IMG/VR virus record: IMGVR_UViG_3300010226_000002
Strand: one strand, 5' to 3'
Origin: a virus
Length of the DNA: 64,000 nucleotides
Part shown: in pieces, positions 57,001 to 63,000 of the stretch
Layout: every line of letters starts with the position of its first letter
Position numbering within the stretch: the first letter of the stretch is position 1
Program-made: the position numbers

Positions 57001-60000
57001 GCGGCTGTCACTGTGCCCGCCGCTCAGCCCGGCACCAACAATCCGAGCGCGAACTACAGCGCATGGATGTCCGTATTTCCGCAGGAGTCGCTAGACGATC
57101 CCGGCACATTCCTCGTAACCGTATTCGCCTATCTCGACCCTTCGTTCACGACATACACAGCCAATAGCTACGATGTCAGTTGGATGGAGTCGCAGACGAA
57201 AGCAGGCGGCGGCTGGTGGGCGCAGCGCAATCAGGCAGGCGATCAGGCGACGAATCCCGGAACGTTTAGCTCGACCACGGTTCAGGTGCGCGGGCCGATC
57301 GCGGGCATTGAAGCCCTATGTGAGAACGGCTCGGTCGTCGTAATGGACTGCGGCGATTCAATCACTGCGGGCGCAGGCCAGACGAACCTTGGCCAGACGG
57401 ACATTTACCGAGCGTGTGTAGCAATCAATCAATTGGGTGGCAAGCCGGTCAGTCATATCCGCTGCGGTTGGGGTGGACAGAATTCAGCGATGTACGGTGC
57501 ACGTGCTCTCTACATGCTGCCAATCATCAAGCCTGACGTCTTGGTCTTTACGGCAGGGACTCCAAATGACGGAACTCCATCGCTCGTTGGGCAAGTGGGC
57601 AACCGCAGCGTCATCCAGCAGGTAGTCGACCTGGCGAAAAGTCAGGGCACACGGGTGATTCTTCGGGGATGGGCTCCTCACTCGGTGGTTGCAGACAACT
57701 GGCCTCAAGGCACATTGACGACGACGCCGACTTATCCGGTTGCGACTGTCAGTGGCGACGTGTATCGCACCGATCAGAACGCGCGCTGCGCAGCCATGGA
57801 TGGGCAAGGAAATGTGTTCTATACGGCTGGCATTTCAGTGCTCGGTAATGGCGCAGTGCCGGAGCGCTATCAGCCTCAGTACACGACCGATCTGAACCAT
57901 CCGAACGATGCCGGTTACGCATTCGCGGCGATCAATATGCAGGCCGCAATCCAGCGCGTCATGACGAAGTTCAAATAACCATCCAATCTCATAACAAGCC
58001 GCCCGCGAGGCGGTTTTTTTATGCCTATGCCCATCATCAAACATCTCGTCGATGCTGCGAAAGGCAAGCATCCGGTCACTGCTGCGCGCTCGCCGCATTG
58101 GTCGACCGTCCGTAAAAAGCATCTCGAGAAGTTTCCGACGTGCGCTGTGTGCGGCGGCAACGTCAAGCTCCAGGTACATCACCGCCATCCTTTTCACCTT
58201 CATCCCGAGCTGGAGCTGGAGGAAAGCAACCTCATCACGCTTTGTGAGGCACCCGGACGCAACTGCCACCTGATATTCGGTCACCTGTTTAATTTCCGCA
58301 GTTTCAATCCTGACGTTGGCGTTGATGCGGCAGCATGGAGCGACAAGATTTCTCACCGGCCGATGGCCGACAAGGAGCAAGTATGAACCTCCCGACTTTT
58401 TCAGCAAATTCTCAAAAACTACTGGTAGGCGCCGTGCTGTTCGGTGCTTGGGGCTACTTGGTCTACGTTGGCAAATCCGACGCCAGTTCGTTTGTCGATT
58501 ACATCAAGGATGGCTTGATCGGCCTTGGCCTGTATCACACGCTGCGCCCCTCTAGCGCGCCAACGCCGCCCGCGCAATGAAAGCCCTAGCCCTCGCGCTG
58601 GCTTTCTCGCTGAGCGGCTGTGCATCGATCTGGTATGCCGGCGAGTCCGACTACCGCGTCACCCTGACTGACGGCGTGGAAATCACCATTCATAGCGGCA
58701 AGGAAGCGCAGTCCGTCAATGCGATGTTTGCCCAGACGCCGAGCGGCTACGTCATCACCCTGCAAGAGACTGGCGTGACTGCGTTCAAGGGCCAAGCCCA
58801 AGCTAGCGCCGTCGCCTCGGATGTCGCAGGCGCAATTTCAAATACGGCTATCTCGGCCGCCCAAATCCTCAAATAGGAAATCACCATGCGTAAATTTATG
58901 CTGCTCGCGGCAGGCCTCGTCGCGCTCGTTTCCGGCTGCGCCACCACTGGCGCTCAAACTCCGGCTGAAGTGCTGGCCAACGTTCACCTTCAAGTAGCGA
59001 AGGCCTGCACGGTCGCCAAGCCGACGCTGCTATCACTTCAGGCGATGTCCGCGCAGATGACCGCCGATCAGGTGGCCGACCTCGCCAAGGCATCTTCCAT
59101 CGTTACCGAAGTCTGCTCGGCATCCGTTCCGCCCATCGCTTCGGTGCAAGACCTCGTGAACGTCGCCGTGCCGGCTGCAATCAAGATCATCGCTGCGTCG
59201 CCGCTAAAGGATGCGGACAAGACGACGGCTGAGATTGCGCTTACGGCGGCTAGTGTCGCAGTGTCGGCTGCTCTCGCGCAGTACGCTCCGACCGTCGCTG
59301 TGCCAGCTTCGGGCGCGGTGGCGTCGTGACAGCTCATTCGCACTACGAAATAGATGTGATAAAATAGCGAGACCTGCTCGGTGCGTCAACACCTTGCAGG
59401 CCTCTAACCATCATCACTTCTCGGAGAAGTCATGGCAGCTAAAAAGCATTATACAGTAGGGCAGCGCTACAATTCCTTGGTGTTTCTGGAGGAAATTGAG
59501 CCAATTGGCGGGAAACGCCGAGCAAAATTTTTGTGTGATTGTGGTCGCGAACATATATCAGCGATTGGACATGTCACAGCAGGAAGGACCACATCGTGCA
59601 ATTGCCGCAGGATTGGCAACCTAAAGTCTGGCACGCGAACAACCCACGGACAATCTGAGCACGGCAATAGAACGTATAAGTCTTGGTGTCACATGCGTGA
59701 TCGGTGCCGAAACCCGAAAAGCAAGAGGTATTCAGACTACGGCGGTCGTGGGATAACGGTATGCGATCGCTGGGAGTCGTTCGAGAACTTTCTAGCCGAC
59801 ATGGGCGAGCGGCCTGATGGAATGACGCTTGACCGCTACCCCAATGTTAATGGCAACTATGAGCCCGGGAACTGCCGCTGGGCCACGACAAAACAGCAGG
59901 CAAACAACGTGCGGCGCAGCGTCATCCTATCGTTCAATGGCAGAAGCATGACTGCATCCGAGTGGGGTGAAGAAATAGGGCTGTGCCCGAAACTAATTCG

Positions 60001-63000
60001 TCAGCGTATAAAAAGCGGTTGGACTGCTGAGCAGGCTCTCACGATAAAGCCGGTAGTAGGGCAAAAGATAAAAATCGACTGACAAGATCATCTATAACTT
60101 TGCGAACCCCGCCTCGGCGGGGTTTTTTATTGCCTACGGAAACTTCATGAGCGCTTTTTTGACGGACCTCCAGGTGGAGAACGCTACTGATCTAGACGAT
60201 GGCAAGTGGCGCTTAACCGCGCCGCTCGTCTATCAGTCGGACGTTGCAGGGATGACGTTCACGGTCCCCGCTGGTTTTATTAGCGACTATGCTTCAGTCC
60301 CGCGTGCACCGTTGGTCTACTGGCTGTGCGGCGACACAAGCACGATGGCATCCGTCGTCCACGATGCCATCTATACCTATCATTGGGTCGATCGTGCCAC
60401 TGCTGATAAGGCGCTGCGCGAGGCATCGCTCGTTACCGGCGTTCCCGCGTGGCGTGCGGCGCTGATGTATTGGGGCGTCCGAATAGGCGGTGGCGGCAAG
60501 CATTGGAACGGTCCCGCAACAGCCTAACGGTTGTAAACAACTTTCACAGGCGTTAGACTGTCTTTGGAGCGTTCCGTAGCGGTAGACCGTTCCCGGTCAA
60601 GATCGGGGATATTGAGGCCGCACTCGGACAAGCGCTAGCCTGCGGGTCGCTCCACCCTTCACTGATTCGCCCGCACAGCATCGCGGACGTGGTTTGGCTT
60701 GGCTTCTTCGTCTGGCGCTCTGTTGTTGATGCACCATTGGTCGAGATATTCTCCCGTGGCTACGGCAGGGGTGAGCGCCGCCACAAGCGGCTCCCAAAGC
60801 CTGACCATCAGGCGAGTGCGGTAGTCCGCGTCTGGCTCGGCTCCTGCGCGAGGTAGATCAACGCCCCTCATCGCACCGATTGCGTCCAGTCCGTACCCGG
60901 ATTCAACAAGCACCGTCTGGCGCGGGTCGATCAACGTCATTGGCAGCATTGACTCTCCTTCAGTGCTTTCTAAAAGAATGCAGAAGCACCCCTCTATCTT
61001 GCCATTGGCGACGATCAATCCCACTCTTCCTGATCTGCGGCATCCTGCAAACTTGCAGAGATAATCGCCCGATGCCTCGCTGAAAACTCAGGCCACGTCT
61101 TTCTTAGATCATCGGACGCGTAATTCTTCCATTCATGGACACGCCCCGCTGATTCCCAATCGGGCGTCTCGTGGTCTCTCGGTGGTTCGGACGCAAGTCC
61201 TTCGATTGCCTCAGCCATTATCCCTTCCTCCCGCGCCCATGAGCGCATCAATCAGCCCGCACTAGCGGCGCGTCAAATATCCCTCGCAATCCCGAAATAG
61301 TCTTCCGCGAAGCAAAACCACATCAGCCATTCCTTGACCTTGTTGCGCTGCGACTCGTGAAACTCAACCATGTCGACGCTTTGGGGCTCAGCGGTCGGTA
61401 TTAACCTGACTTCGCAGTTTTGCAGACAGATAACCGGGCCACTCCTGTAGCCTGCGTTGATGACGTTCAGATGGTCGCCACGCTTCCAGCCTTTCGGTAT
61501 CCAACCCGGCATGAATGACCCAAACGGATTCATCATCGTCGCTCCCCAAAGAATTCCGCCGCCCGTCGATCTTCCTCTGCCGTCGTCCCGAAGAATCGAT
61601 CCACGGCAGCCGCGCTTTTGACCTCGACAACGAGCGTTCCCATTATCCGCGACATGCGGGAGTCTGGCCGCTTCGCGCGTCTCTTGATGTGACGGATTTT
61701 CATTGCTTCGCCGCAATCTCAGCGGCGGCACGGACGATCGCACGTCGCGACGATGCGCAATGATCGTCCAGCACCGGCTCGCACAACACCTTGCGCGTGT
61801 TGAATTTTTCGTCAAGCATCGGATACTCGGCGGTCACCATTGCGAATTGCTGACGCAGATTGATGTCTAACTTGACGGCCAAACGCATCGCGTCGCCGTC
61901 GTCGGCGAGCGGATTCCATCGTCGGCTGTTAACGACAATTGAGGTGTCGTCAAGAATTCGCAACTCCCCATATCCTGCCGCCTTCGCCGCCAGCTCTAAC
62001 AATTTCCTGTCGTTCATCGTCTGTCCTTTGGTTGTTCTTCGTCATCTGCGCCTATGCAGCGCACAAAGTGAACGCAGCCCCGCTCTGGCTGCGCCTGAAC
62101 CTGCTTGCGGTCGCCGTACATGCAGAGGATATGGGAGCCGTCGGCAATGTCTCCCGCCCAGAATTCGCATCCGCGGCAATGTCGGTCGGTGGTGGAGTCG
62201 GTGAAAAGGCCCATCGTTATACTTCACTGTGTCAGGCGCAAACCGCTGTTCATAACCATTGCGTAAGTCTTTGATTCCATTGGCGCGAGTTTGCAGGTTT
62301 CTGCACGTTTTCAACCTGTCAGTTTGAAGCCTAGATGATTGATTTTAAATCAGAAACGCGTCTCTGTGGCACATACCGTTGCAACAGGTTTCGCTGGCCC
62401 GCAACGCCCACTGGGCTTGGGCGCATTCAACGACTGATGAAAATTTGTTCAAAACCCCGCATGTTCCACACTACTCGATTTTGACTTTGATGGGCTCGAG
62501 CCCGCGCGAGTTCGCATAGAGGTCTGCAGTCTGGTCATTGCTGTGCCCTAACAATGCTTTGGTGTCCACACCACCTTGTTCAAGATACATGCGCTTGGCC
62601 AAGCTGCGAATCTCGTGGAACGTCGGCACGTTATTTCCAGTGATCCCGGCCAACTCCCGAGCGTCCGCGAACGCCTGCGATACGCTGCCGATCTTCACGG
62701 GTGAGCCGCGATGGGAGCGAACGTGCGTTAGCTGATGGTGGACAAGATATTTGCTCTCGATCCCGGTCGATGTGCAGCGCTTGATAACGTCGGCGAGAGA
62801 CATGCCGATAGCATCCATGCGCAGCCTTAGCGGGATGGCGATGCGCACCTCGGTTTTTGACCGGCGCACGATTGCAGTCTCGCCGACGACCGCATCTTTC
62901 TCCCATCGAGCTATTGTCGATCGATCCTGACCGGATACCAAGGCTAGCAACATCGCATTCGGCAACCACTCTGCAACCTCTGGCGCCTTGTCGAGAATCG

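Follow-up and report, generated by a model that had tools for sequence, protein, structure and literature searches.

Four diverged paralogs of a very large, probably HNH-derived phage gene family in a temperate phage or prophage of Burkholderiales type

The IMG/VR virus record IMGVR_UViG_3300010226_000002 contains a stretch of 64,000 nucleotides, here called the window, that comes from a temperate phage or prophage, has a GC content of about 56.6% and carries four dispersed genes for related proteins with a zinc ribbon and a YGGRGI...NCRWAT core. The listing of open reading frames (ORFs), together with a family hidden Markov model (HMM) built from 123 homologs and searched against the six-frame translation of the window, places all four paralogs where a preliminary description of this DNA had put them. 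Copy A (4078-4875, minus strand) lies directly upstream of recT and has an ATG at 4875 that yields 265 amino acids (its longest ORF reaches a TTG at 4965), and copy B (14177-15106, plus strand, with an alternative ATG at 14162) is found between the replication loader/winged helix-turn-helix (wHTH) genes and ssb, in surroundings that encode an IstB/DnaC-like loader and a single-stranded DNA-binding protein (SSB). Copy C (59432-60082, plus strand, 216 amino acids) is flanked by a lipoprotein gene and a DUF1353 gene, which in the syntenic relative L001 come downstream of holin and lysozyme. Copy D (63779-64000, minus strand) is located upstream of xis-int, where Exc and integrase adjoin it, and is represented by its C-terminal 73 codons, since the window end cuts the gene; the full gene, of 217 amino acids, is available at L002:5855-6508 (minus strand) on a Joint Genome Institute (JGI) metagenome contig whose 6,076-base overlap with the window is identical and which extends beyond the window end. 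The recombination, replication, post-lysis and int-xis neighbourhoods that had been proposed for the four genes are borne out by these neighbours.

The family HMM matches exactly four places in the window (copy C at an E-value of 1.9e-94, B at 1.1e-81, A at 1.4e-75 and the truncated D at 1.7e-14), so that the paralogy of these genes is far beyond chance. Pairwise, the other copies share 32-43% full-length identity with copy C, and identity is distributed unevenly along the proteins, reaching 45-64% in the core, 24-37% in the N-terminal module and 14-30% in the tail. All four genes are lower in GC (0.515-0.548) than typical genes of the window (0.573 +/- 0.016), and the same is true of GC at third codon positions (GC3), which is 0.55-0.62 as compared to 0.68 +/- 0.05. 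The recorded gene call for copy C (P0002, 129 amino acids) begins at Met88 and misses the zinc-ribbon module (59432-59692); the start that gives 216 amino acids is backed by homologs, by the gene call in L001 (likewise 216 amino acids) and by a ribosome-binding site before 59432. Among prophages, the nearest relatives of the DUF1353 gene of the window are in Caballeronia, Paraburkholderia and Janthinobacterium, and megablast found nothing among GenBank phages that matches positions 57000-64000, a region for which that collection thus contains no close relative.

The family had been regarded as unassigned, a view that has to be corrected, given that PHROGs and RefSeq already name it HNH endonuclease and that multiple HNH-type genes are commonplace in phages. 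Copies C, A and B match phrog_374 ('HNH endonuclease') at E-values of 1.4e-62, 9.6e-62 and 1.3e-60, respectively, the copy D fragment matches phrog_3377 (E 2e-11), and all of the PHROG families of the copies (phrog_374, 3377, 2081 and 953) bear this same label. By tblastn, 1,392 family places were located across 1,207 GenBank phage records, often under the RefSeq name HNH endonuclease, in a host range that includes phages of Staphylococcus, Salmonella, Vibrio, Pseudomonas, Bacillus and Mycobacterium. A profile search that was exhaustive over 1.84 billion cluster representatives (clusters at 50% identity) returned 200,006 of them at E <=1e-3 and 85,106 at E <=1e-30, and a word-indexed search gave at least 7,991 homolog candidates among the matches listed, with a Pfam domain in almost none. 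Five long representatives (P0241, P0260, P0341, P0352 and P0371; 530-900 amino acids) contain 5-11 matched stretches each, including repeated N-terminal zinc-ribbon modules, and may be tandem fusions or arrays of DNA-binding modules.

Curated resources add little to this assignment. Pfam and NCBIfam scans of the four proteins returned nothing relevant, the AP2 domain (PF00847) is absent from the four copies according to Pfam, and none of the copies matches a PADLOC defence-system model. Sequence searches of the PDB, run both with a single protein and with a profile of 50 sequences, yielded no homolog, the best match (the tail against Mu Ner, E 0.88) being at chance level. Literature searches retrieved only unrelated conotoxin papers for the YGGRGI motif and nothing functional for 'PVL ORF-50'. 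BFVD gave 139 structural matches at E <=1e-3, under names such as HNH endonuclease, HTH (helix-turn-helix) homing endonuclease and AP2-domain protein, and one of these structural neighbours is called PVL ORF-50-like. The corresponding PVL ORF-50-like domain (PF07768) is matched weakly by the copy C tail (E 0.037) and by the C-terminal extension of the homolog P0020 (E 2.1e-5, 25.2 bits for a cut-off of 27), matches which are below threshold and which cover the tail or the extension only and not the core. As regards the core, a check against non-nuclease families yielded matches solely to phage families labelled HNH endonuclease, and its beta-beta-alpha unit aligns with that of HNH_3.

The clearest indication that these genes move comes from the slot occupied by copy C, which is bordered on the left by the lipoprotein gene (58886-59329, plus strand) and on the right by the DUF1353 gene (60147-60527, plus strand). 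Within this slot copy C constitutes a cassette of its own, as had been proposed: consensus scans identify a sigma-70-type promoter-like site (59337-59365, plus strand; TTCGCA-17-TAAAAT with an upstream TG) and an intrinsic terminator (60104-60133, plus strand) composed of a 9-bp stem (60104-60125) with six G-C pairs followed by a T run, both of which are conserved in two related contigs, L001 and L085. Between promoter and gene lies a leader (59369-59434, plus strand; also at L001:9938-10003 and L085:3220-3286) with two predicted hairpins. The first (59369-59404) shows two compensatory pairs, which with only three sequences is suggestive, and the second (59412-59434), predicted from the same three sequences, would tie up both the start codon and the GGAGAAG ribosome-binding site in its stem. 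The leader is conserved even in L085, although another kind of HNH gene follows it there, and this suggests that the predicted hairpins may exert translational control over whichever endonuclease fills the slot. The possibility that promoter and leader form a repeat travelling with each copy was considered and rejected, as they occur once in the window and are specific to the slot. No terminal repeats were found around the cassette, apart from one 10-nt direct repeat that is likely due to chance.

Orthologs of the DUF1353 gene (51-95% identity) were recovered from 19 IMG/VR contigs and three bacterial genomes, and in none of these 22 loci does a family member lie within 4 kb. In L083, whose DUF1353 protein is 95% identical, the site is empty, with the lipoprotein stop overlapping the DUF1353 start, and in at least five further loci a lipoprotein homolog ends no more than about 50 nt from the DUF1353 start. 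Judged against these empty sites, the window holds an 817-bp insertion (59330-60146), nearly coincident with the interval singled out in the preliminary description. The same insertion is present in L001, with an ortholog of copy C, and L085 shares the terminator as well as the promoter and leader (identity of about 80% across 59336-59440), but these enclose the gene for an unrelated protein of 222 amino acids that is a canonical HNH_3 protein (Pfam E 1.1e-12). Taken together, L083, L001 with the window, and L085 represent three states of one slot, which can be empty, contain a member of this family or contain a classical HNH gene. The conserved 5' end of the DUF1353 gene is a candidate location for a cleavage target.

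At the other three loci relatives likewise lack the gene at the orthologous position, so that none of the four is a fixed, syntenic locus. In the three relatives closest by RecT, whose proteins are 80-96% identical, DNA homology to the copy A region stops at 4067-4086, that is, at the stop codon of copy A, and no family member is found within 4 kb in these relatives. Around copy B, homology to relatives stops at 14025-14084 (14172 in L116), just before the gene, and relatives of the DnaC-like loader have no family member at its position. Copy D is absent from all 14 integrase-related loci, including two that retain Xis. The far flanks of A and B (the ORFs at 4845-5422 and 15103-15468) were without homologs among the recovered loci. 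Seven of 80 RecT loci and six of 73 loader loci do contain a family member, at positions other than those in the window. In the RecT-related viral contigs L012, L014, L016, L017, L020, L038 and L058 the member directly follows recT, whereas copy A of the window lies upstream of it, and RecT neighbourhoods seem to be a recurrent landing zone for the family.

Family members are also found inside DNA polymerase genes, as in phage SO-1 and in Jerseyviruses, and additional matches fall under 'DNA polymerase' features; the labels intron, intein and 'DNA polymerase' are the depositors' own annotations. In SO-1 (NC_013600; region L193:2333-3091) the polymerase gene harbours gp39, which is described there as an HNH gene encoded in a group I intron. 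In the Jerseyvirus Ent3 (vB_SenS-Ent3, HG934470), a member of 247 amino acids (L192:2348-3091) is encoded in a different frame inside the annotated polymerase intein (L192:2256-3152), and the polymerase frame remains open throughout it. This arrangement looks like the dual-coding 'hidden HNH' that has been described for a phage methylase (PMC11855218).

The free-standing placement that had been attributed to the four genes fails for copy B. On a reading of the sequence, a small ORF just upstream (about 14022-14180) has a stop codon that overlaps the ATG of copy B, and the stop of copy B overlaps the start of the next gene at 15103; by these overlaps copy B is not free-standing. The small upstream ORF (14022-14180, plus strand; about 52 amino acids) is unlisted and joins the wHTH gene to copy B through ATGA-type start/stop overlaps at both ends, and part of it is kept in L105 and L116, relatives that lack copy B. 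The C-terminus of copy B is an extra module of about 80 amino acids which the preliminary description had called NUMOD-like, a designation that was not upheld, as residues 235-314 have no Pfam match, NUMOD included, at E <=10, and residues 231-303 show only a weak match to phrog_3404 ('HNH endonuclease', E 0.0026).

Two further genes of the window (21227-21700 and 38127-38843, both on the plus strand) are canonical HNH_3 plus AP2 genes, with local HMM E-values of 8.5e-55 and 2.1e-57, and Pfam finds AP2 and HNH_3 in both; the second of them breaks up the structural-gene block and has a low GC3 (0.54). With the four copies, the window therefore carries at least six HNH-lineage genes.

The AlphaFold2 model of copy C, computed from a 50-sequence alignment, has a mean predicted local distance difference test (pLDDT) score of 90.4 and divides the protein into three parts. 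Residues 16-66 are predicted to form a three-stranded sheet with the zinc ribbon (C35/C37/C56/C58), followed by a disordered linker (70-77) with a near-invariant His72-Gly73. The middle part begins with a long helix (80-93) that ends in R91-C92 and continues with the YGGRGI loop (103-108), C111 and two short helices; strand 1 (131-135) then ends in D134-R135, a loop of 12 residues between the strands holds Y143-E144-P145 and N147, strand 2 (148-152) corresponds to CRWAT, and a helix (153-158) contains Q156 and is followed by N159. Residues 131-158 thus constitute a predicted beta-beta-alpha unit. The C-terminal part (165-204), a predicted hairpin plus three helices, agrees with the helix-turn-helix-like tail proposed earlier, and so does the proposed N-terminal ribbon and core architecture with the alignment, in which the CxC...CxC cysteines are present in 108-113 of the 123 homologs and hardly any variation is seen in the YGGRGI...NCRWAT core. 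Foldseek with the full-length model gave no meaningful match in the PDB, probably owing to the presence of several domains; with the core alone it gave 16 weak matches, seven of which are His-Me nucleases (Gme HNH 4h9d in two chains, I-HmuI 1u3e, Tde2 Ntox15, I-PpoI in two entries, and Cas8-HNH).

In the alignment of 123 family sequences R91, R135, Y143 and N147 are invariant (123/123 each), position 134 is D in 112 and E in 10 (D/E in 122/123; in copy A, E-R instead of D-R closes beta-1), and Q156 (121/123), N159 (121/123), H72 (118/123), C92 (120/123), C111 (121/123) and C148 (118/123) are close to it. In the His-Me superfamily the catalytic His is situated at the C-terminal end of the first strand (PMC5714182), which is the place taken by Arg135 in all 123 sequences. 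Moreover, three hhalign runs against a canonical HNH_3-AP2 alignment, for which a gene on the related contig L001 had served as the seed, gave one and the same register, MGERP-DGMTLDR...NCRWAT..Q..N against MGLTPLDKVVVDH...NLRICT..N..N. Copy C residues 122-161 (E 2.2e-4) and copy B (E 9e-4) match phrog_4578, which a canonical HNH_3 protein matches at E 1.9e-26 over corresponding profile positions and in a consistent register, and overlapping parts of phrog_374 are matched by family and canonical HNH_3 proteins alike.

Intermediate sequences point in the same direction. The members in SO-1 (a Sodalis phage) and Ent3 (a Salmonella phage) read EMDRIDTDGNYEPGNLRFVSRSENCRN (NIRF in Ent3), and with an HNH_3-only HMM, SO-1 gp39 (NLRFVSRSENCRN) scores 14.3 bits and the Ent3 ORF 11.6 bits, the maximum over 4,000 shuffles being 10.4; in these alignments NLRFVSRSENCRNR is placed against NLRiCtraeNlrNrg. 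The overlap in phrog_4578 and phrog_374, the HMM scores of SO-1 and Ent3 and the strand-end position of Arg135 support the shared register, by which Asp134 corresponds to the Asp of the HNH_3 'DH' pair, Asn147 to the loop Asn and Asn159 to the second conserved Asn. Gln156 stands where HNH_3 has an invariant metal-binding Asn, which SO-1 gp39 keeps. On the strength of these comparisons, the core is probably an HNH_3-derived domain in which the general-base His has been replaced by a fixed Arg and the other site residues have remained strictly constrained.

Selection on copy C is in line with such constraint. The gene and its L001 ortholog share 91% protein identity and 83% DNA identity, with a ratio of nonsynonymous to synonymous substitutions (dN/dS) of 0.044 at a dS of about 1.1, and the dN/dS of the neighbouring DUF1353 gene is 0.23. 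The fixed residues, along with this strong purifying selection, would favour a working site over a relic.

In its predicted layout each copy is much like the nicking homing endonuclease I-HmuI (1U3E). Compared with I-HmuI and the HNH_3 family (PF13392; His-Me group 2 of PMC5714182), the copies share the predicted beta-beta-alpha unit, the Asp that ends strand 1, the Asn before strand 2 and the T-x3-(N/Q)-x2-N helix, as well as a modular build in which a DNA-binding beta-sheet module comes first, the putative catalytic unit second and a helix-turn-helix last; members of the family are likewise free-standing or intron-associated and sporadic in phages. The copies differ in having Arg for the catalytic His and Gln for the metal-binding Asn, in the added CxC...CxC zinc ribbon, and in a helical R-C...YGGRGI.VC..W segment with three conserved cysteines inserted before the beta-beta-alpha. 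A second comparison is with PacI, which has no canonical His and in which a Tyr of the inter-strand loop serves as base while Asp and Asn coordinate the metal (PMC5714182, PMC4081073). The family resembles R.PacI in being a predicted beta-beta-alpha-metal protein that lacks the canonical His, with an invariant Tyr143 in the PacI-type loop, with Asp134, Asn147 and Asn159, and with the Asp and two amide positions kept; however, no sequence or fold match to PacI was detected here, the part assigned to Tyr143 is putative, and PacI, a restriction enzyme that acts as a homodimer and has Cys4 zinc sites, is unlike the monomer-style, modular homing type represented by the family.

With regard to gene behaviour, a parallel is provided by the Seg and Mob free-standing homing endonucleases of T4-like phages, the former being GIY-YIG and the latter canonical HNH enzymes. 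Both groups occur as several diverged copies between conserved genes of one genome, show presence/absence polymorphism between close relatives and have a target that is presumed to lie in the adjacent conserved gene, and in both, hairpins that mask the ribosome-binding site may regulate translation. The present copies differ in residing in a temperate phage of Burkholderiales type and in that DNA cleavage by them is presumptive.

The explanation that is best supported by these data is that a single, very large phage family of homing-endonuclease type has given rise to the four genes as diverged paralogs. We put the probability that they are of HNH lineage and behave as mobile elements at about 0.85, and the probability that they are, in addition, active nucleases that home at about 0.6. 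The core is conserved, and from the divergence of both DNA-binding ends a separate target site is to be expected for each copy. When a relative without the gene is met in mixed infection or recombination, the protein would bind a site in or beside the neighbouring conserved gene, the candidate regions being recT (copy A), loader/ssb (copy B), the 5' end of the DUF1353 gene (copy C) and xis/int (copy D); it would then nick or cut this site in the relative, and recombinational repair would copy the endonuclease gene into the empty site. As to catalysis, a single metal ion might be held by Asp134 and Gln156/Asn159, with the invariant Arg135 in place of the general-base His and with the loop Tyr143 taking the role of base in a PacI-like manner; the near-invariant linker His72 would be an alternative base. 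The earlier suggestion of homing-endonuclease-like selfish genes accords with every test run, although the replacement of His by Arg in 123/123 sequences makes it less sure than the name would have it that these proteins are nucleases.

Several observations weigh against this explanation. The canonical catalytic His is missing from all 123 sequences and arginine is a poor general base. No window copy matches Pfam HNH_3 at E <=1, and even the intermediate members of SO-1 and Ent3 match no Pfam HNH model at E <=10, although the HNH_3 model does recover the L085 ORF (E 1.1e-12) and the window gene at 21227-21700 (27.1 bits, cut-off 24.8); it gives the gene at 38127-38843 only 22.1 bits for the same cut-off. 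The hhalign comparison of the family with HNH_3-AP2 is not significant (P 0.07-0.26), the 123 cores score only weakly above shuffles with the HNH_3-only HMM (12% beyond the 99th percentile), and the Foldseek matches of the core to solved nucleases, with E-values of 0.4-9, are not significant either. A clean empty site with both flanks conserved exists for copy C only, the far flanks of A, B and D being mosaic, and a literature search found no biochemical data on any member of this D-R family. Finally, strong purifying selection and a promoter and terminator of its own would suit a phage-useful gene as well as a selfish one.

It is against this background that other explanations have to be weighed. 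One of them, which is unlikely but deserves serious attention, holds that these proteins descend from HNH homing endonucleases, are catalytically dead and have been kept as sequence-specific DNA-binding proteins (regulators, exclusion factors or architectural proteins), their sporadic distribution reflecting 'moron'-like traffic of accessory genes and not homing. Site-specific regulators had been named as the alternative from the outset, and this alternative keeps the standing of a minority view because the catalytic His is replaced by Arg throughout. In essentially all sequences His has become Arg and the metal-binding Asn has become Gln, and His-Me domains that have neither the His nor a Tyr substitute, such as the nuclease-like domains of ENPP, are presumed inactive (PMC5714182). 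The SMAD MH1 domain, whose catalytic region has devolved and which only binds DNA (PMC3384342), offers a precedent; in SMAD MH1 and ENPP alike, the beta-beta-alpha fold was kept for DNA or ligand binding after the loss of the catalytic His (PMC3384342, PMC5714182). A zinc ribbon with a helix-turn-helix tail, a copy C equipped with promoter, structured leader and terminator and evolving at a dN/dS of 0.044, and a copy B translationally coupled in an operon would all suit such a role. On the other hand, in SMAD MH1 and ENPP the whole catalytic constellation was lost, whereas here the genes behave as mobile elements and the other site positions are fixed: a degenerate site should drift, yet 121-123 of the 123 sequences retain each of D/E134, R135, Y143, N147, Q156 and N159. 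Besides, a canonical HNH_3 gene alternatively fills the copy C slot, members inside DNA polymerase genes occupy the niche of active homing endonucleases, and four copies per genome at different junctions, along with 1,392 places in 1,207 records, are hard to fit to regulators of fixed role.

It is rather improbable that the proteins are active nucleases which mainly benefit the phage, be it through exclusion or degradation of competitor or host DNA or as an aid to recombination, replication or excision. Their location beside recT, the replication loader/ssb and xis-int, the members that abut recT at other positions in seven of 80 other RecT loci, and the strong purifying selection are what would be expected of such enzymes, but no conserved partnership is apparent, as the neighbouring genes occur without a family member in nearly all relatives, copy C adjoins only a lipoprotein and a DUF1353 gene, and no defence-system model is matched. 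This explanation also overlaps with homing itself, because marker exclusion is how free-standing homing endonucleases spread. A packaging-associated role of the kind played by HK97 gp74 or the HNH proteins of staphylococcal cos phages, which assist terminase, is scarcely credible: it shares with the present family the label 'HNH endonuclease' only, and the number of copies (four), the lack of a Pfam HNH match and the differing architecture, with zinc ribbon and helix-turn-helix tail, speak against it. No copy adjoins the large ORFs of the structural/terminase region at about 25-29 kb, and such a role is effectively excluded by gene position.

Within the preferred explanation, that of a homing-endonuclease-type family, a more far-reaching proposal may be considered, namely that the family, with at least 85,000 clusters at 50% identity, is an undescribed His-Me variant comprising active nickases or nucleases in which the His has been permanently replaced and a PacI-like mechanism has evolved independently, and very widely, in homing endonucleases. 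This is somewhat doubtful, though a real possibility. In such a variant Arg135 might stabilise the phosphate or activate a tyrosine, Tyr143 or His72 might be the base, Asp134 and Gln156/Asn159 might bind the metal, and a second zinc site formed by Cys92, Cys111 and Cys148 might brace the fold.

For the window, these results mean that four of its genes are mobile and HNH-type, and that at least six passengers of endonuclease type mark mosaic junctions. More generally, this is among the most abundant phage families labelled 'HNH endonuclease', and it has no curated domain model, no solved structure and no example of the defining His in 123 sequences; a uniform loss of this His in a very large family appears not to have been described in the literature searched. 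The copy C slot, with its three states and two occupied forms that share promoter, leader and terminator, provides a ready test system. If these proteins do not cut DNA, tens of thousands of 'HNH endonuclease' annotations would refer to DNA-binding proteins and their selfish-looking distribution would need another cause. If they do, the known chemistry of beta-beta-alpha-metal nucleases would be extended and phages would hold a large pool of modular, site-specific nickases.

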